The position numbers and the translations under genes were made by a program. The notes under the pieces were generated by a model. The model had not been told where the DNA came from. It saw only the letters and a list, made by a program, of their open reading frames with translations, and searched no databases. This document shows, piece after piece, positions 2,426 through 46,905 of a stretch of 64,000 nt of DNA (position 1 is its first letter; each line of letters starts with the position of its first letter). Origin of the DNA: Patescibacteria group bacterium. GTDB lineage: Bacteria > Patescibacteriota > Patescibacteriia > Patescibacteriales > UBA12465. The stretch spans positions 29,126 through 93,125 of the forward strand of contig JBAZTY010000002.1 in assembly GCA_041661685.1 (NCBI GenBank), given 5' to 3'.

Positions 2426-5400
2426 TTAGCGTCCGGCGAGATTAATCTCGTCTAGCTTGACGCTGAGGAGCTTACTGACTCCGTCCGCTTCCATAGTCAC
2501 TCCGTAGAGGATGCTGGCCTTGCGCATGCAGGCGCGGTTATGAGTGATAACGATGAATTGTGTCTTATTGGATAAGTCGTCAAGAATGCTGGCCAAGCGT
2601 TCGGAATTCGCTTCATCAAGCGCGGCGTCGACTTCGTCGAGGACGACGAAAGGCGAAGGATTGGCGCTGATGATGGCGCAGATAAGCGCGATGGCCGTCA
2701 AAGCGCGTTCGCCTCCGGACAGCATCGTGACTGTTTGGATCTTTTTGCCCGGAGGAGTAGCCTGGATTTCGATGCCGGCCAGGCCGACAGCGTTATGCTT
2801 TTTGAGGAATTTTATTTTTTTCAATTTTTCGTCCGTCTGGCTCTTTATTTCCACCTCAGCCGGAGTTAGGCCGCTTATTTCCGCTTTAGCGGCGGGGATG
2901 TTCTTCGCTTCTTCTTTTTCAAGATCTTCTGTCATGACTTTGGATATTTTGGCATTGCCGCCGCTGAAGAGGATTTTAAAATATTCATTAAATTTCTCGG
3001 AGATGACCTTGAACTCGGCATCGAAGCGGTCCTTGATATTCAAGTCCAGTTCGTAAATTATCTCCTCTAAAGACTTGATGGCGTTGTCGAGATCTTCGAC
3101 TTGGCCGCTCAGGAAATCATAGCGTTCTTTGGTTTCTTGATATTCTTTCTCTGCTTCCGGATCAATGCCGCCGATTTGTTCTAACTGGTTCTTATTATTG
3201 GATAGGCGTTTCTGCAAAAGATTAACATCAATAGCCGCTTCAGCCGTGCGATAATCTTTAATTTCGGAAATATCCAATTCCTCGCCGCGGATATTAGCCT
3301 CCAAGTCTTCCAGTCTCGTTTCTTGGCGGGTCGCCTCAATCTTCAAGCCGTTAAGCTGATCAGAAATATCATTCACTTCTGCCTGGAGCGCTTGGATATT
3401 TTTCTGGCATTCGAACATCTGGGTTTTTTCCTTATCTTTTTCGCGGTTAAGCTCTTCGAGCTTATCTTCTATTTCTTTTATTTCAGCGTTCAGGCCGGTT
3501 AATTTTTCATTGATCTCTTTTTTCTCGACTTCGATGCCGCTAGCATCGAATTTAATCTGGCTCTTGGAGATCTTAGTTTTGATATCTTCAATTTCTTTTT
3601 CGCTCTGGATTTTCTTGGCGCGCAGCATACGCAAACGCTCGTCTATGGCCGAAGCCTTAAGGCGATAGTCCTGAATCTTGGATAAAGCCGCCTGCCTCTT
3701 CTCATTCAGTTCCGCCAGGCGGTCATTTTTGGCTAATTCAGTCGTCTCTTTTTCTAAAATTATTATTTTTTTATTTATTTCAGATTTTTCATTCTCGATC
3801 TTAGAAGCGTCGAATTTTATCTGGGCTTTGTCGAGCTTGGCTTTAATGTCGATTATCTCTCGGCTAGTCTGCTTCTCCTTGTCTTCCAGTAAACGCAAGC
3901 GCTCATTAACTGAAGACAGGCGTAATCTTTCGTCATTCAAGCGGTTATTAGCTTCTTGACGCTCTTCAGTCAGGGAGATAATTTCCGTCTGAATATCTTT
4001 TATTCGCTGGATATCGTCGCCATGGCCGCCGGAGATAAGCGCTTGGATCTTGCCTTTAAATTCAGCTTTAGCAGAGGCGATCATCTTCTTTATCTTTTCT
4101 AAATCGCTTTCATGGCCGATGGTATCTAATTGTTTTAGGAATTCATCGATGACGCGGCTGATTTCTTCGTTCTGATTACCAGCCGTGCTCTCTTTTTTCA
4201 GTTCTTTATTAATAGTCTCTATTTCCGCATTTAAGTGGCCCAGTTTTTCCTGGATAGCGCTCAGCTTGTTTTCCAGATCTATCTTTTCGGCCTGATTATT
4301 TTCCGAACGGAGGCGTTCAATCTCCCGAGACAGCTCGTCGAGTTCTTTAGTTAGCTCTTCGTTCTTATTGTTTAGCCAAGAAACATCGAACTGCCCCTGG
4401 ATTTCCAGATTTGCTTCGAGCACAGCTTCTAACTTAGATATCTGCCGCAGATATTGATCTTTTTCCGCGTTCAGCTGATTTATTTTTCTCCTAATATCAT
4501 TAGCTTTCTCTATTTCTTGATTAATGAAGTGTAACTCCTCATTAAGAGCCGTCTCATCTTTAGAAGAATTATTTTTTTCGTTAGCGGCAATCTCAGAATT
4601 CATGTTTTCCAATTCAGCGCTTAATTCTCCTTGCTTGTTATTCAGCCAGGAGACGTCGAACTGCCCTTGCGATTCTAATTGGACTTCTAATTCCGCTTGG
4701 AGCTTGGCTAGCTGTTTCAGATATTGATTTTTTCTGGCTTCTAAATCCTTGAGGCGCGGAGTCAATTCATTTATTTCTCGGAAATTATCAGTATTTCTGA
4801 TTTTGTTCAGTTCTTCATTAAGTTTATCTAATTTTTTTTCGCGTTCCAGCTTCAATCTCTCGCTTTCTAAGAAGCGAGCATTGAAAGAATCGAGCTTCTT
4901 ATTGATATCCTGCCAGAGATAGCCATAATAATTTAATTGGTCGCCTTTCAATTCTGATTCTATTTCGCCGCGGCGTTTTAATTTTTCGACTTGGCGAGTC
5001 AAGCTCTTGAGACGCGGCTTAATTTCTGAAAGCAGCATGTCGACTTGCTGAAGATTTTCATAACTATTCTCTAACTTATTCAGAGCGGAATCGCGCTTGA
5101 TCTGGAATTGCTTGACGCCGGTCGCTTCGTCGAAGAAATCTTTCCTATCAGCGGCTGAAGAGCTCAAGAAATTTTCGACCATGCCTTGGCCGATGACGCT
5201 ATAGGTTTTCTGTCCGAAATTGGCTTTAGCCAGAAGCATCTGGATATCAGCTAACCGGACGCGGTTGTTATTTAATAAATATTCGCTTTCGCCGCTCCGA
5301 TAGAGGCGGCGGGTGATGACGATTTCGCCGCAGCTGGCAATCAACTGATCAAGATCGCTTTCTTTTTCAATCGTTTCGGGGGCGTCAGCTTTATTTTTAA

Positions 5401-5689
5401 GAGCTTCGGCATTATTCAAATATAAAGACACCTCGGCTAGGCTGAGCTGGCTTTTCTGGTCGGAGCCGGAAAAGATGATATCTTCGCTTTTTTTACCGCG
5501 CAAGGTCTTCAGGCTTTGTTCGCCTAAGGCCCAGCGGACGGCATCGGCGACGTTTGATTTTCCGGAACCGTTCGGACCGACGATCGCCGTCAGGCCTCTT
5601 TTCTGTTTATCGATCAATCCGGAGAAGATGAGCTTATTCTTATGAGCAAAGGATTTAAAACCCTGAACTTCCAGTTTTTCTAGATACAT
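2426..5689 (-). CDS. smc: SMC chromosome-condensation ATPase (atypical: no recognisable hinge)
   Basis: The ORF-track start at 5797 is an upstream extension. The conserved SMC N-terminus MYLEKLEVQGFKSF starts at the ATG at 5689. Walker A GPNGSGKSN, Q-loop IGQGMV, signature LSGGE, Walker B VVLDEVDAALD, long heptad-rich arms. Confidence 0.85.
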   Translation of the reverse strand: MYLEKLEVQGFKSFAHKNKLIFSGLIDKQKRGLTAIVGPNGSGKSNVADAVRWALGEQSLKTLRGKKSEDIIFSGSDQKSQLSLAEVSLYLNNAEALKNKADAPETIEKESDLDQLIASCGEIVITRRLYRSGESEYLLNNNRVRLADIQMLLAKANFGQKTYSVIGQGMVENFLSSSAADRKDFFDEATGVKQFQIKRDSALNKLENSYENLQQVDMLLSEIKPRLKSLTRQVEKLKRRGEIESELKGDQLNYYGYLWQDINKKLDSFNARFLESERLKLEREKKLDKLNEELNKIRNTDNFREINELTPRLKDLEARKNQYLKQLAKLQAELEVQLESQGQFDVSWLNNKQGELSAELENMNSEIAANEKNNSSKDETALNEELHFINQEIEKANDIRRKINQLNAEKDQYLRQISKLEAVLEANLEIQGQFDVSWLNNKNEELTKELDELSREIERLRSENNQAEKIDLENKLSAIQEKLGHLNAEIETINKELKKESTAGNQNEEISRVIDEFLKQLDTIGHESDLEKIKKMIASAKAEFKGKIQALISGGHGDDIQRIKDIQTEIISLTEERQEANNRLNDERLRLSSVNERLRLLEDKEKQTSREIIDIKAKLDKAQIKFDASKIENEKSEINKKIIILEKETTELAKNDRLAELNEKRQAALSKIQDYRLKASAIDERLRMLRAKKIQSEKEIEDIKTKISKSQIKFDASGIEVEKKEINEKLTGLNAEIKEIEDKLEELNREKDKEKTQMFECQKNIQALQAEVNDISDQLNGLKIEATRQETRLEDLEANIRGEELDISEIKDYRTAEAAIDVNLLQKRLSNNKNQLEQIGGIDPEAEKEYQETKERYDFLSGQVEDLDNAIKSLEEIIYELDLNIKDRFDAEFKVISEKFNEYFKILFSGGNAKISKVMTEDLEKEEAKNIPAAKAEISGLTPAEVEIKSQTDEKLKKIKFLKKHNAVGLAGIEIQATPPGKKIQTVTMLSGGERALTAIALICAIISANPSPFVVLDEVDAALDEANSERLASILDDLSNKTQFIVITHNRACMRKASILYGVTMEADGVSKLLSVKLDEINLAGR

Positions 5690-5759
5690 TTGTTTTCTTG
5701 GATTATTTTGTATACTATATATCATAGACAATAATAACGAAAAAGTAAAAAGAATCATT

Positions 5760-6329
5760 ATGATCATCTCTTTGAGCGGAGCCCCGGGTTCAGGCAAGAG
5801 TACAGTCGCGCAGATGTTGGCCGAGAAATTAGGCTGGCAGCGCTATTATATGGGAAGAATTTGGAGGGAAATGGCCAGTAAACACGGAGTGGACGTGATG
5901 GCTTACAGTAAATTAAATGAAAGTAGCCCCGATAAGGACAAAGAGGTTGATGAATATCAAAGAGAATTGGGCAAGGATAAAGATAATTTTGTCATAGAAG
6001 GAAGAACTTCTTGGTATTTTATCCCCCATTCTTTTAAGATATTTTTAGATGTTGATTCAGAGGAGGGAGCAAAACGTATTTTTGGCGCTGTGCAACATAA
6101 AAATAGCCGAAACGAAGGTGATAATTTGGCTACATGGCAAGATGTTTTGGCTAGTAATAAAGAAAGAACCGCCAGTGACAACGGACGTTATTTAAAATAT
6201 TATGGCATTGATGTAACTAATAGAAACAACTATGATTTCTATCTGGACACGACAGACCTGACCCCTGATCAAGTTTTTTCTTTGGTTTTAAAAGCGGTTC
6301 AGGAAAGGCTTGACAATAAGAAAAATTAA
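5760..6329 (+). CDS. cmk: Archaeal-type cytidylate kinase-like nucleoside monophosphate kinase
   Basis: 189 aa. P-loop MIISLSGAPGSGKSTVAQMLAEKLG at the extreme N-terminus. Overall pattern of Cytidylate_kin2-type kinases. Confidence 0.65.
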   Translation: MIISLSGAPGSGKSTVAQMLAEKLGWQRYYMGRIWREMASKHGVDVMAYSKLNESSPDKDKEVDEYQRELGKDKDNFVIEGRTSWYFIPHSFKIFLDVDSEEGAKRIFGAVQHKNSRNEGDNLATWQDVLASNKERTASDNGRYLKYYGIDVTNRNNYDFYLDTTDLTPDQVFSLVLKAVQERLDNKKN

Positions 6330-8286: not shown

Positions 8287-8970
8287 ATGCTCAAATCTCA
8301 ATTTTTAAAAAGTATGAAATCATTCGTCTTGCGTTTCAAATTTGTGAGCCTGGCCATCCTAGCAATCTTGATTCTTATTCCGGTGGTAGTTTTTGCGCTT
8401 AATAACCCGCTTACCGGTTATGATGTTCAACAAAACGCGCTGAGTATGCCTGTATTCTTCATGGACAACGCTACGACTGTGCATGCTACCGGAGTCTGTA
8501 TTAATAACATTACCGGCGATAGCCGAACCGACTCGTCTCATATAGTCGGTATCGATTATTTCGTTCCGACTAAGACGTCTACTGAATTTGCTAATTTTTC
8601 CGCTTTTAAAAATTCTACTTATCTCATTCCTGTGGCCTGTTACGGAGACCTCATCTGTTCGCCTCTTATCGGCGAAAATTGCGCCAACGACCCTCTGGAT
8701 TGTGGCACCTGCGTCTATACCGGGGGGCCTTGCGATTATGACGAAGTCTGCGATCAAGACGAGGGACAGGATTGCACAGATTGCGACGCTTATTGCGATA
8801 ATGACTGTATCTGCGAAGATCATGATGTTTTTATATCCGATTGCCTTGATTGCTATCCTTATACAAACTGCGGCAGCGCCTTTAGTGGTTGCTGGTGCGG
8901 CGACGGATACTGCGACGGATACTGCGAAGATTATGGTTCTTGCGCTCAAGACTGCCCCTTCGGCACCTAA
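8287..8970 (+). CDS. Membrane-anchored/secreted Cys- and Asp-rich protein
   Basis: 227 aa. N-terminal hydrophobic helix. The C-terminal ~110 aa hold about 25 Cys in CxxDC / CGDGYCDGYCEDYGSCAQDC-type spacing with many Asp. Two overlapping alternative-frame ORFs are treated as spurious. Confidence 0.6.
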   Translation: MLKSQFLKSMKSFVLRFKFVSLAILAILILIPVVVFALNNPLTGYDVQQNALSMPVFFMDNATTVHATGVCINNITGDSRTDSSHIVGIDYFVPTKTSTEFANFSAFKNSTYLIPVACYGDLICSPLIGENCANDPLDCGTCVYTGGPCDYDEVCDQDEGQDCTDCDAYCDNDCICEDHDVFISDCLDCYPYTNCGSAFSGCWCGDGYCDGYCEDYGSCAQDCPFGT

Positions 8971-9526: not shown

Positions 9527-10030
9527 TTAATACGGGTTTTCTCGTAGCTTAAACTTGAAGGCGACGAGGCACGCGATTGGATGCAGAATATATGTGAGCA
9601 GAATGGCTAGAATGGCGAAGAGGGGTTCGATATAATGCAGGGATGTAAAAACTATTCCTAAAAGAAGCATATAGTCGCCATGATCGATAATCGGTAAAAA
9701 CTCTCCGCTTTTCAGATGCATTCGTCTCTTAATGAAGCTTCCGAGCAGGTTGCCGACGTAGACTATAACCGGGATGCTGGCCCAGATTATCGTTGCGGTT
9801 GCCGAGTATACAGCCAGGCTTATCGCCAGGCAGAATATTAGTCCGATGATATTTACTGAATCGCCTATCAGCCGTTCTCCGCGAAAATTAGTTTTGAAAT
9901 CGAGAGGATAATTAAGGTGCTTAAAGTCAGGCGCGTATCTCTTGACCACGTATAAAAGATTCAAAGAGATGTTGGCGCTCCAGGCGATGAAGAAATAGGT
10001 GAAGAAATTAGTAAATGTTAGAACTACCAT
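9527..10030 (-). CDS. CDP-archaeol synthase-like (CarS/DUF46-family) membrane protein
   Basis: 167 aa, about 5 TM. PLDFKTNFRGERLIGDSVNIIG and GNLLGSFIKRRMHLKSGEFLPIIDHGDY parallel the CarS motifs PxDxGxxxxDGxRxxGxxKTxxG and GDxxxSFxKRRxxxxxGxxxPxxDQxD, with several substitutions. Family assignment is from memory of the motif. Confidence 0.5.
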   Translation of the reverse strand: MVVLTFTNFFTYFFIAWSANISLNLLYVVKRYAPDFKHLNYPLDFKTNFRGERLIGDSVNIIGLIFCLAISLAVYSATATIIWASIPVIVYVGNLLGSFIKRRMHLKSGEFLPIIDHGDYMLLLGIVFTSLHYIEPLFAILAILLTYILHPIACLVAFKFKLRENPY

Positions 10031-14315: not shown

Positions 14316-14945
14316 CTATGAATAATGTTCAACAAAATTTTTAAAATTATCTACATCATTTTTAGAACCTAGTACATGAATTTGTTCTGGTTCGAATACG
14401 CCAATTTGAGTTTGGAACGACCATCCATTTTCAGTCCTTTCGTCAATGTCTGGAACATTTAAAACAATAAATCCATCCCCTTTATAATTTGATATTTGTT
14501 GATATGTTTCTTTTATTAAATCATATTCAGATAATTCTTTATAATCATCTAAATCTAATCTTAATGGATTTTTTAAATTAATTAAGCTAGAGATAGTTTC
14601 TCTTGCCCCAGTTTTATTATCATTAAAGCTTCTTGTTTTTCCATAAGTATCAGCTAATCCCTTATCTGGTGTAAAAAATATACCAAGAGCAGATATTACA
14701 TCCTCATTATAATCTGGATTCATTGATTTTTCTTTTTTTAAAAAAATAGCCTCTTTTTGTTTTCCATGATAAACAATATCTTTTAACTCACTTTCAGGAA
14801 ATATTGTATCTAAATATTCAGAATATTGTTCCTTTGTCCCAATTTGTACAAGTTCCGGGTTTTGTTCAAAAACAAAATCAACCCCTTCTTTCATCCTAGG
14901 TTTTTCTATCTTGTTTTCTGAAGTTATGTTGGAAAATTTTTCCAT
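14316..14945 (-). CDS. Hypothetical protein in very AT-rich islet; possible H-Y-E type ADP-ribosyltransferase-like fold
   Basis: 209 aa. Visibly much lower GC and almost no CpG compared with its neighbours. Motifs QYSEYLDTIFPESELKDIVYHGKQ, GIFFTPDKGLADTYG and QIGVFEPEQIHVLGSKNDVDNFKNFV resemble a domain I recall from phage/conjugative-element polyvalent proteins. The assignment is tentative. Confidence 0.55.
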   Translation of the reverse strand: MEKFSNITSENKIEKPRMKEGVDFVFEQNPELVQIGTKEQYSEYLDTIFPESELKDIVYHGKQKEAIFLKKEKSMNPDYNEDVISALGIFFTPDKGLADTYGKTRSFNDNKTGARETISSLINLKNPLRLDLDDYKELSEYDLIKETYQQISNYKGDGFIVLNVPDIDERTENGWSFQTQIGVFEPEQIHVLGSKNDVDNFKNFVEHYS

Positions 14946-34157: not shown

Positions 34158-35453
34158 TTAATGACTTTTCTGCAAATATTTAAAAATATTTTCCGCTGCT
34201 ATTGCTCCCTCCGAACAGGCGGTAATAATTTGCCTAAAAGAATTTGAATTAGTGGTTATGTCCCCGGCCGCCCAAACACCTTCTCGGCTAGTAGCCTGAT
34301 TTTCTTTAGTTGCTATATAATGCCCTTCATCCGTTTCTAAAGATAGTTGATTAATTAAATCTAAATCTGGCTCAGAGCCAACCTCGACAAAGACGCCATC
34401 GACGCTTAATTCATTTTTGCCAGCAAAGGGTTTATCTAATTTTAAACCAGTCAGCTTTTCGACGCCAAGCAGTTCGGTAATTTGAGTATTATAAATAACG
34501 CTAATATTTTTATTCGAATTAACCTGATCTATCCAGGCTGTTTCTCCGCGCAAAGAATCGCCTCTGTAAATCTGATAAACTTTATGAGCCACTCGAGCTA
34601 AATATAAGGAGGCGGTGTTAGCACTATCGCTGCCGCCGACCACAGCCACTGTTTTATCTTTATAAAACAGCGCATCACAAGTTGCGCAATAAGAAACACC
34701 CCTGCCTATCAAATTTTTTTCATTGGGCAAATCTAAATGCCGGTGTTTCGTTCCAGTGGCCAGCAGCACAGTCTTAGCTTTAATAATTTCATTATTAGAC
34801 AAAGTAATATTGTATAGCCCGCCAAGCTGTTTAATAGAATTGACCCTGGAGATTTTTTGCGGCACTTCTAAGGCGTTAACTTGATTAGCCATTTTTTGGC
34901 TTAAGTCCATTCCGGAAATTTCCGTTTCTGACGGGAAATTACAAATTTTATGAGATGATGTCATCAGACCGCCCGGAAGATCGCCGATTAATGCCTGATT
35001 AATTTTATAACGAGCCGCATAAATTGCCGCTGTCATGCCTGCCGGCCCATTACCAATAATACACAAGTCGTATTGTTCCGCCTCTTTGTTATCGGCGCTT
35101 AGTTTCAAACTACTTTCACCGCACAATTTTTCCAAAATATTTTCAAGTTCTTTTTCTTCGATATCGCCGGATAAACGCTCGTTAATTAATTGCCCTGACT
35201 TAAAAAATAAAATTGTGGGCGAGCCGCTAACCCCCAAAGATATAGCCAGTTCTCGATGCTGTTGGCGAAATATCTTTATAAATTTAACAGATGGGAATGA
35301 TTTAGACATTTTTTCATATACCGGCGCTAATTTTTCACAGGGCGGGCATTCGTCAGAAAAGAAATCTACAGCCAAAATAGGCCAAGTTTTTTTTAAAGAT
35401 TCCAATTCAATATCTGATTCTAGATAAGTAATTTCCATATTTTTTATTTTCAA
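34158..35453 (-). CDS. Thioredoxin-domain / thioredoxin-disulfide-reductase fusion protein
   Basis: 431 aa. The N-terminal ~110 aa are a Trx fold with CPPC. Then follow FAD motif IIGNGPAGMTAA and redox CATCD of TrxR. The ORF-track start is TTG at 35453, and an ATG at 35438 is the likelier start. In the NADPH-site region, HRRD reads YRGD. Confidence 0.8.
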   Translation of the reverse strand: MKIKNMEITYLESDIELESLKKTWPILAVDFFSDECPPCEKLAPVYEKMSKSFPSVKFIKIFRQQHRELAISLGVSGSPTILFFKSGQLINERLSGDIEEKELENILEKLCGESSLKLSADNKEAEQYDLCIIGNGPAGMTAAIYAARYKINQALIGDLPGGLMTSSHKICNFPSETEISGMDLSQKMANQVNALEVPQKISRVNSIKQLGGLYNITLSNNEIIKAKTVLLATGTKHRHLDLPNEKNLIGRGVSYCATCDALFYKDKTVAVVGGSDSANTASLYLARVAHKVYQIYRGDSLRGETAWIDQVNSNKNISVIYNTQITELLGVEKLTGLKLDKPFAGKNELSVDGVFVEVGSEPDLDLINQLSLETDEGHYIATKENQATSREGVWAAGDITTNSNSFRQIITACSEGAIAAENIFKYLQKSH

Positions 35454-45809: not shown

Positions 45810-46310
45810 TTATTTTAAATCAGCGATTATTTTTAAATCTAATTTTTTAGTGGTTGTGTCTAAAACGGCGAAAGTCGCCTGATGGAAGACTCCGGCGACG
45901 TTTCCGGGATTAGCGATTATCGTGTCGCCATCATGCTCGAGCCAGGGTTTATGAGTATGTCCGTAGAAAACAAAATCCGGCGACGCGGCCGCGAGCTTGA
46001 AGACTTTTTTTGTCTTCTCCGGCTCATGGCAGAAGCCGATACGGAGTCCGCCGATCTCTCTCAATCCGATGGCGCCGCTATATTTGATGTTTTTATATTG
46101 GCTCAGCTCTTTCTCTTCGTAGAGCTCCATATTTCCGCCAACTAAAAAAATCTCGCCGGAGAAATTAGCGGCGAGATAGTCTATGGTTTCTAGGTTAGTC
46201 ATGTCGCCGCAGGCGATCATCTTTTCTACTCCGTGTTCAGAGCACCATCTCAGGCATTTCTCTAGGTTAGCGATATTGTCATGGATATCGGAAGCGATCG
46301 CGATTGTCAT
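45810..46310 (-). CDS. YfcE/MJ0936-family metallophosphoesterase
   Basis: 166 aa. ASDIHDN, ACGDM and YGHTHKPW metal-binding motifs. Confidence 0.8.
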   Translation of the reverse strand: MTIAIASDIHDNIANLEKCLRWCSEHGVEKMIACGDMTNLETIDYLAANFSGEIFLVGGNMELYEEKELSQYKNIKYSGAIGLREIGGLRIGFCHEPEKTKKVFKLAAASPDFVFYGHTHKPWLEHDGDTIIANPGNVAGVFHQATFAVLDTTTKKLDLKIIADLK

Positions 46311-46329: not shown

Positions 46330-46905
46330 CTATTTTTTGCCTCTTAATTTTATCTCGTAAGCCATCTGTTCCAGTTTTCTCAGATGACCGCGCGCCTGAT
46401 CATATTTGGTGCGCAGGTATCCGGTCATGTCGAAATCGATGAGCTGAGACATGATATCTTCGGCGCCCTTCTTGATCTTCGCTACCTCGGCGAATTTTCC
46501 GGCCGCCGCTTGGTTAGTGGCATAACGGACCAATTCTCCGACTAGGTCGCAGATGCCGCCGAGATAGCCTTCATAATCGAGCTGCAATTCCGGAGTGGCC
46601 CCGATCTTCTTATTCTTAATGACAGTATAGAAAGTTTTTCCTTCCAGGTATTCCTCTACGCCTGCCTTATAGGCGCCCTCTCGGTTCAATCTTTCTTGGC
46701 CGAAGCGCGCGGCCAGATTCTTGAGATTCTTTTCGTTCTCTTCCAGCTTAGCCGCGGCTGTCTTGAAATCCTGGCGCTGCAGGGCGAAGATGGTCTTTTT
46801 GGCTTCGAAGAGGATATTATTGGAAGCGCTGATAATCTGCCGGCGCTGTGATTCATTAGCTTGGTAGTCTTTCCGAAGCTGCTCTAAGAATTCTTTATTG
46901 ATCAT
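46330..46905 (-). CDS. Translin-family protein
   Basis: 191 aa, all-helical. LDYEGYLGGICDLVGELVRYA...AGKF...YLRTKYDQARGHLRKLEQMAYEIKLRG parallels human translin LDVEDYLSGVLILASELSRLS...AGDY...SLRKRYDGLKYDVKKVEEVVYDLSIRG (alignment from memory). Confidence 0.65.
   Translation of the reverse strand: MINKEFLEQLRKDYQANESQRRQIISASNNILFEAKKTIFALQRQDFKTAAAKLEENEKNLKNLAARFGQERLNREGAYKAGVEEYLEGKTFYTVIKNKKIGATPELQLDYEGYLGGICDLVGELVRYATNQAAAGKFAEVAKIKKGAEDIMSQLIDFDMTGYLRTKYDQARGHLRKLEQMAYEIKLRGKK

Follow-up and report, generated by a model that had tools for sequence, protein, structure and literature searches.

Can a bacterial Smc protein keep its ATPase head and its long arms without a hinge? The smc gene on the minus strand of a 64,000-nucleotide stretch from a Patescibacteria group bacterium (GCA_041661685.1, contig JBAZTY010000002.1, positions 29,126 to 93,125), hereafter the window, raises this question. 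The general view, to our knowledge, is that all true SMC proteins have a hinge and cannot do without it; dimerisation and DNA binding are ascribed to this domain, as are roles as a DNA entry gate or a gate for bypassing obstacles. A sequence-only reading of the window had noticed a canonical SMC head in the gene product and no recognisable hinge. We found that the 1087-residue protein appears to be the Smc (the Smc-ScpAB condensin ortholog) of a Candidatus (Ca.) Falkowbacteria-like member of the Patescibacteria. As judged from its sequence, the ATPase head with its catalytic motifs is intact, and no hinge is present according to tests of sequence, profiles and predicted structure. The protein would be a bona fide Smc ortholog without a hinge, in which the catalytic head and the canonical arm length are kept, within a large hinge-less radiation.

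The minus-strand open reading frame (ORF) at this site spans 2426-5797. The ATG at 5689 was taken as the true start of smc, because homologs start at MYLEKLEVQGF, the N-terminus that this codon gives; a longer product from a TTG start would overlap the divergent cmk (cytidylate kinase gene, 5760-6329). The stretch to which the sequence-only reading had drawn attention, 3998-4195, corresponds to residues 499-564 (its own numbering minus 36), and the sequence quoted there is present. The gene is laid out as follows, where AF2 denotes AlphaFold2.

2426..5689, minus strand: smc gene, 1087 codons plus stop, Smc ortholog without a hinge domain
5114..5689, minus strand: N-terminal half of the ATPase head, residues 1-192, with Walker A at 38-46 and Q-loop at 166-171
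4187..5113, minus strand: N-terminal arm helix, residues 193-501, from AF2 secondary structure
4499..4756, minus strand: N-arm repeat unit 1, residues 312-397, with QGQFDVSWLNNK; 44% identity to unit 2
4208..4486, minus strand: N-arm repeat unit 2, residues 402-494, with the second QGQFDVSWLNNK
4022..4186, minus strand: apex module in the hinge position, residues 502-556, from conservation and AF2
2966..4021, minus strand: C-terminal arm helix, residues 557-908, from AF2
3710..3973, minus strand: C-arm repeat unit 1, residues 573-660, with AQIKFDAS (residues 622-629); 50% identity to unit 2
3452..3709, minus strand: C-arm repeat unit 2, residues 661-746, with SQIKFDAS (residues 710-717)
2429..2965, minus strand: C-terminal half of the ATPase head, residues 909-1087, with LSGGE at 990-994, Walker B at 1015-1019 and H1050

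The identity of the protein was examined with domain models and structure comparisons. SMC_N (Pfam) covers residues 2-1072 (E 3.8e-47), and TIGR02168 (the SMC_prok_B equivalog) scored 614.9 bits, above its cutoff of 567.35; the alignment runs in two stretches, between which the hinge portion of the profile is passed over. All of the head motifs quoted in the sequence-only reading were found (GPNGSGKSN 38-46, IGQGMV 166-171, LSGGE 990-994 and VVLDEVDAALD 1015-1025), together with the H-loop residue H1050, and the catalytic motifs were invariant in the 128 sequences compared. The best matches in the PDB were the Smc heads of B. subtilis and Geobacillus (E 6e-96), covering the head and head-proximal segments only, and the top Foldseek matches of the full-length AF2 model were full-length SMCs. 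The head-proximal coiled coil (residues 181-240 and 841-900) was conserved as strongly as the ATPase core. Three other identities were rejected: Rad50, whose models gave 37-45 bits against cutoffs of 700-1087, with CxxC absent; RecN, for which TIGR00634 gave 26.4 bits against 407.85; and the archaeal ASRPs (ClsN/Sph), for which NF045487 gave 84.6 bits against 300, again with CxxC absent.

Two insertions were seen in the head. One of 30-50 residues lies in the C-terminal half between LFxGGxA and PPGKK (residues 919-966, window 2792-2935) and contains the basic helix KLKKIKFLKKH; it occurs throughout the candidate phyla radiation (CPR), in hinge-bearing and hinge-less SMCs, and is absent from Firmicutes and Chloroflexi. 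The other, of about 18 residues in the N-terminal half (residues ~95-118, window 5336-5407), is specific to the clade of the window protein. In addition, most homologs are named "AAA family ATPase" and not SMC at NCBI, presumably since models score lower when the hinge is missing, and this labelling implies a systematic under-annotation of Smc in Patescibacteria.

We looked for the hinge in several ways. No match of the 1087-residue protein to SMC_hinge (PF06470) was found by Pfam even at E<=10, and a custom hinge hidden Markov model (HMM), built from nine hinge-bearing close relatives, gave none in the window protein at E<=10 either. The latter negative is meaningful because the same HMM recognised Firmicute hinges, those of Bacillus, Staphylococcus and Clostridium being detected at 1e-37 to 1e-41; among 270 relatives and the window protein it found only its nine source proteins. 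When the central-region profile of the family was aligned to the hinge profile with hhalign, the probability was 0.09%, and none of the hinge-only PDB chains was matched by the window protein. The full-length AF2 model (128 homologs; mean predicted local distance difference test score, pLDDT, 75.1) was predicted as helix from residue 193 to 908 except for short breaks, with no strand between residues 145 and 911, and a separate model of residues 467-622 gave four helices (pLDDT 87.7; predicted template modelling score, pTM, 0.69). The claim that the central stretch is helical and lacks a globular fold was thus borne out by both models, as was, by the searches, the failure to find a hinge.

A hinge that is present but too diverged for HMM detection seems to us a negligible prospect. 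As a general point HMMs can miss fast-evolving CPR domains, but the arm ends here are only 55 residues apart, where a hinge needs about 150-170, and the centre is predicted as all helix. Moreover, the hinges of sister CPR proteins were readily detected (PF06470 E 1e-24 to 1e-31). A cryptic hinge was rejected on the Pfam, custom-HMM, hhalign and AF2 results. The sequence-only reading had also seen no Rad50-like CxxC hook, and we likewise found no CxxC in the central 240 residues of any of 290 relatives, so that a zinc hook was ruled out. The window protein has four cysteines, at positions 120, 761, 1004 and 1054.

Given that a gene of this kind might arise from faulty assembly, we compared it with its relatives. 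None of the 120 closest homologs (58-100% identity, 996-1118 residues) contains PF06470. They were taken from JGI, ENA, NCBI and Logan assemblies, and the named sources were Ca. Falkowbacteria or Patescibacteria. The hinge-less architecture is therefore common to the orthologs that the sequence-only reading had proposed to compare, and its recurrence in independent assemblies disposes of the chimeric or collapsed assembly that the same reading had named as a possible refutation. Internal repeats such as those in the arms could in principle collapse in assembly; however, the ORF is intact with invariant catalytic motifs, the architecture is repeated across all four sources, and the repeat copies are only 44-50% identical as protein and ~70% as DNA. 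An artefact is hardly credible, be it a gene made chimeric or collapsed in assembly or a pseudogene in decay. Collapse at the internal repeats in particular was ruled out by the divergence of the copies together with the layout of two N-arm and two C-arm units in 114 of the 120 homologs.

The distribution of the hinge was examined by an exhaustive neighbourhood search of 1.84 billion cluster representatives, from which the 150 nearest 50%-identity clusters were taken. The hinge was missing in 141 of them, and the nine hinge-bearing relatives (995-1035 residues; PF06470 E 1e-24 to 1e-31, with the TFLPL strand present) were scattered among the hinge-less ones. Hinge-less SMCs dominate the sequence neighbourhood of the window protein in Patescibacteria, and the case is not isolated. 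Named hinge-less sources include Ca. Falkowbacteria, Kerfeldbacteria, Uhrbacteria and a metagenome-assembled genome (MAG) labelled Saccharibacteria; some MAG titles claim other phyla, several titles (e.g., "uncultured Gammaproteobacteria") look unreliable, and a distribution confined to CPR is not proven. Outside CPR, the nearest hinge-bearing neighbours among the matches listed were from Firmicutes and Chloroflexi. A literature search found no paper linking SMC, hinge or ScpA with CPR/Patescibacteria in a relevant way.

All of the 150 nearest clusters were shorter than canonical Smc, apart from one outlier of 1425 residues, and they fell into three length classes of about 725-775, 850-915 and 1000-1090 residues. 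The classes are sharp among the hinge-less members, at about 750, 890 and 1040-1090 residues. We measured the inter-anchor distance, defined as that between the head anchors FxEAxG and LFxGGxA, with the following results.

Hinge-less, short mode: 419+-9 residues
Hinge-less, middle mode: 554+-9.5 residues
Hinge-less, long mode: 720+-7 residues (window protein 721)
Hinge-bearing CPR SMCs: 670-685 residues
Bacillus and Clostridium: 891-904 residues (Bacillus 891)

The Bacillus distance less a hinge of ~170 residues is ~720, which is the value of the window protein. The difference between 679 and 554 residues is the exchange of the hinge for a short linker, as is seen directly in one pair of relatives: between P0143 (hinge-bearing, 1035 residues) and P0145 (919 residues) the flanks are 59% and 52% identical, and the hinge of P0143 (residues 437-597, 161 residues) is represented by 38 residues in P0145. 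Among themselves, the hinge-less classes differ by 68 and 83 residues per arm, which is of the same order as the steps of 75-100 residues in PMC5344682. The natural "mini", "midi" and full-length arms appear to follow the periodic arm-length rule derived from B. subtilis mutagenesis.

We next consider the history of the hinge on a tree of the heads, which was a rough neighbour-joining tree with 40 bootstrap replicates and poor backbone resolution. Hinge-bearing CPR proteins formed three to five separate clusters on it, and the hinge state changed at least 4-6 times (Fitch minimum over the 40 bootstrap replicates). Dollo counts of 12-26 losses were set aside, being judged inflated by the poorly resolved neighbour-joining backbone. 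The interleaving of hinge-bearing (995-1039 residues) and hinge-less CPR SMCs on this tree would also be expected if the window protein were a specialised paralog, e.g., a defence or repair SMC-like protein, with the canonical, hinge-bearing Smc being encoded at another locus. We consider this improbable. The Smc equivalog cutoff was passed; the neighbours of smc are housekeeping genes (cmk, bL19, tRNAs and a ComM/YifB-like gene) with no adjacent defence-type partners; and no second SMC in the same assembly was found among the matches listed, which covered at least 80 genome loci. Genomes of ~1 Mb rarely keep two SMCs, which was counted against a paralog as background and not as a test.

As a tentative proposal, across a large part of Patescibacteria the hinge may be absent from most SMCs, having been lost several times independently; the hinge-less SMCs would be the only chromosome-organising motors of these cells, and minimal helical tips, if anything, would join their arms. 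If multiple losses and sole SMC motors hold true, the conserved hinge, for which roles in DNA gating and DNA binding have been proposed, would be dispensable for core SMC function in nature, whereas the periodic arm-length rule would not.

What stands in place of the hinge can be described from conservation and AF2. The arm helices end at residues 501 and 557, and the 55 residues between them (502-556) form a predicted helix-turn-helix, in the order loop, helix 506-525, loop TIGHES, helix 530-552 and loop GGHG. The sequence-only reading had put a helical linker of ~65 residues here: its helical nature stood, and its extent and form were refined to this shorter module. The suggestion that GGHG could be the turn at the apex did not survive, since the apex has three loops, of which GGHG is only one, and family members differ there, with NGLDD, TGESD or ADKSN in its stead. 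Near-invariant positions are F517, L518, L521, L530, K534, A540, K541, F544 and I548, and column identity is 60-65% in the apex as compared with 47-52% in the adjacent arm. We infer from the models that the apex hairpin may fold back onto the arm tips to give a small four-helix bundle.

The arms themselves carry matched duplications. The two N-arm units match each other at E 6e-26, corresponding to a duplication of 90 residues, and the two C-arm units at E 1e-26, corresponding to one of 88 residues. The four units and their paired helix breaks mirror each other about residue ~528, each unit having a helix break and a highly conserved motif, QGQFDVSWLNNK in the N-arm units and (A/S)QIKFDAS in the C-arm units. 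Short members of the same clade, P0127 and L001 (880-896 residues), have a single N-arm and a single C-arm unit. The duplications lift the span of the window protein from the ~554-residue class to 721 residues, about that of B. subtilis Smc without its hinge. The duplications are old, as the DNA of the unit copies is only ~70% identical, and over short stretches only.

Several further observations concern these units. The QGQFDVSWLNNK sites lie at about residues 341-352 (window 4637-4669) and 431-442 (window 4367-4399), and the (A/S)QIKFDAS sites at window 3803-3826 (residues 622-629) and 3539-3562 (residues 710-717). Both motifs are conserved as strongly as the ATPase core, face each other across the arm and were modelled by AF2 as low-confidence helix breaks; they may mark a conserved joint in the arm or a site where a partner binds. 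In ~60% of the ~890-residue class a G-x5-WL motif is present once, and hinge-bearing CPR SMCs also have it; it is never seen in the ~750-residue class or in Firmicutes. Two independent homologs of 996 residues, P0109 and P0111 (JGI and Logan; 92.5% mutual identity), have two N-arm units and one C-arm unit, so that their arm strands differ by ~90 residues; the region concerned corresponds to window 3452-3973.

How such a protein would work is a matter of interpretation. The sequence-only reading had reasoned that an otherwise canonical SMC lacking its hinge must dimerise in some other way, and its view of the protein is supported. We lean, with modest confidence, towards the apex bundle joining two protomers, either through association of bundles folded in cis or through swapping of hairpins, the complex then being an ordinary head-engaging, kleisin-bridged Smc. 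On this account, the globular hinge would have been deleted and replaced by the 55-residue helix-turn-helix, and the apex bundle would have taken over the one indispensable job of the hinge, namely joining two Smc arms at their far end, so that a DNA-loop motor with engaging heads and a kleisin bridge would still operate. Because the duplications are matched and of one period each, heads and apex would have stayed in the rotational register that a coiled-coil superhelix demands. Buermann et al. 2017 (PMC5344682) described several modes of arm length among prokaryotic Smc proteins, at 163, 238, 341 and 515 residues, and found that the arms of B. subtilis Smc can be resized only with a period of ~91 residues. 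Because arm length is so tightly quantised and the duplications are matched, the head-to-apex geometry is arguably still under selection.

Several points weigh against this account. The AF2 models are of single chains, and dimerisation at the apex is putative. An extended continuation of the two helices, with its tip at residues 526-529, fits the predicted secondary structure equally well. The four-helix-bundle topology was deduced from the Foldseek neighbours of the apex fragment in the PDB, which were all non-significant (best E 0.21); all were four-helix bundles, including 7dgu, a designed bundle of 97 residues (100 columns at 2.9 A), and 2yfa, the McpS sensor (140 columns at 3.4 A). The apexes of SMC, MukB and Rad50 were not among these neighbours, and a phmmer search of the apex against the PDB gave designed coiled coils only. 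An HMM of the apex matched only the window protein's own clade, indicating that other hinge-less clades have different replacements, some of them much shorter; such differing replacements (38 residues in P0145) speak against a single dimerisation device common to all. With 8 K/R and 9 D/E, the apex has a slight acidic excess, and the DNA-binding surface of the hinge is therefore not replaced by it. Finally, ScpA (PF02616) and ScpB (PF04079) were not found by Pfam among the 40 ORFs of the 64-kb window, nor did a loose regex motif scan of the window and 80 fetched loci find either of them.

Some of this evidence would also fit an apex that serves just as a cap, with no part in dimerisation. Single-armed Smc would then pair solely by ATP-dependent engagement of the heads and by the ScpA kleisin, perhaps with the arms zipped together; at the far end the SMC compartment would stay unclosed, leaving the head/kleisin compartment as the one place where DNA is held. 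The variety of the hinge replacements between hinge-less clades, down to 38 residues, speaks for this, as does the lack of a cysteine hook or any other known dimerisation motif. The 4-6 changes of hinge state would be easier if nothing specific had to be re-invented each time, and the strongest constraint is seen at the head and neck interfaces, where the head-proximal coiled coil is conserved as the ATPase core is. On the other hand, the sharp quantisation of arm length and the matched duplications are hard to explain for an arm with a free end, PMC5344682 ties the length constraint to arm geometry between heads and hinge, and the apex is conserved above the flanking arm. We regard a cap as rather unlikely and retain the dimerising apex as our working account, under which hinge-less apexes are compact candidates for minimal SMC dimerisation modules.

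Elsewhere in the window, a few ORFs deserve mention. A protein of 191 residues encoded at 46330-46905 on the minus strand matched Translin (PF01997, E 3.5e-22), a family seldom seen in bacteria, and a calcineurin-like phosphoesterase (45810-46310) adjoins it. Matches were also obtained to ART-PolyVal (ADP-ribosyltransferase of polyvalent proteins, E 2e-08; 14316-14945, minus strand) and to a CarS-like family (CDP-archaeol synthase-like, E 1.7e-12; 9527-10030, minus strand). The 431-residue ORF at 34158-35453 (minus strand) combines a thioredoxin domain (residues 25-108) with a pyridine nucleotide-disulphide oxidoreductase and resembles a thioredoxin/thioredoxin-reductase fusion. At 8287-8970 (plus strand), a 227-residue ORF without a Pfam match has a hydrophobic N-terminal segment and a C-terminal half very rich in Cys and Asp, with many CxxC and CxC.

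The window protein can be set against several known systems. With RecN it shares an SMC-superfamily ATPase and the lack of a globular hinge, whereas the arms of RecN are much shorter and its function lies in DNA repair. The coiled-coil tips of RecN reportedly mediate dimerisation, an observation credited to Pellegrino et al. in 2012. Rad50/SbcC and the ASRPs (ClsN, Sph1/2) resemble it in that a head is joined to an antiparallel coiled coil that ends in a small apex and not in a hinge. However, Rad50 and the archaeal ASRPs dimerise through a CxxC zinc hook (PMC9389158), whereas the window protein has no CxxC and its HMM scores for these families are far below the cutoffs.

A hinge-less SMC is not a new concept. 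A marine "hinge-less SMC" clade, small, abundant in OM-RGC metagenomes and annotated as Actinomycetes, has been described (Environ Microbiome 2025, PMC12153180); it branches near actinobacterial Smc, and that study called it a new kind of biology. Compared by description, the two share an SMC-type head (COG1196), a coiled coil, and the absence of hinge and CxxC, and both are known only from metagenomes and AlphaFold models. The proteins described here differ in coming from Patescibacteria, with Firmicute/Chloroflexi-like heads as opposed to those of Actinomycetes, and in that hinge-less forms prevail in the neighbourhood, where three length classes are seen and the hinge state has changed repeatedly.

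The closest likeness in the head is to bacterial Smc itself (B. subtilis; PDB 5XG3/3ZGX heads), with which the window protein shares an orthologous head (E 6e-96) carrying all five motifs, and, as in Bacillus, a long antiparallel helical arm, 721 residues as against 891 minus a hinge of ~170. Unlike bacterial Smc, it has a predicted helical hairpin of 55 residues for the PF06470 hinge, matched arm duplications of ~90 residues, and extra head insertions (residues ~95-118 and 919-966). When the hinge of B. subtilis Smc was replaced by the P. furiosus Rad50 zinc hook, function was retained (PMC5344682). The engineered Smc(Zh)/Mini-Smc proteins of that study are like the window protein in carrying a minimal apex other than a hinge on the head and arms of an Smc, and in changing arm length by whole periods of ~90 residues. 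The differences are that the window protein is natural, that it has neither CxxC nor zinc, and that its dimerisation at the apex is putative. In these respects, it is a natural counterpart to the engineered zinc-hook Smc.

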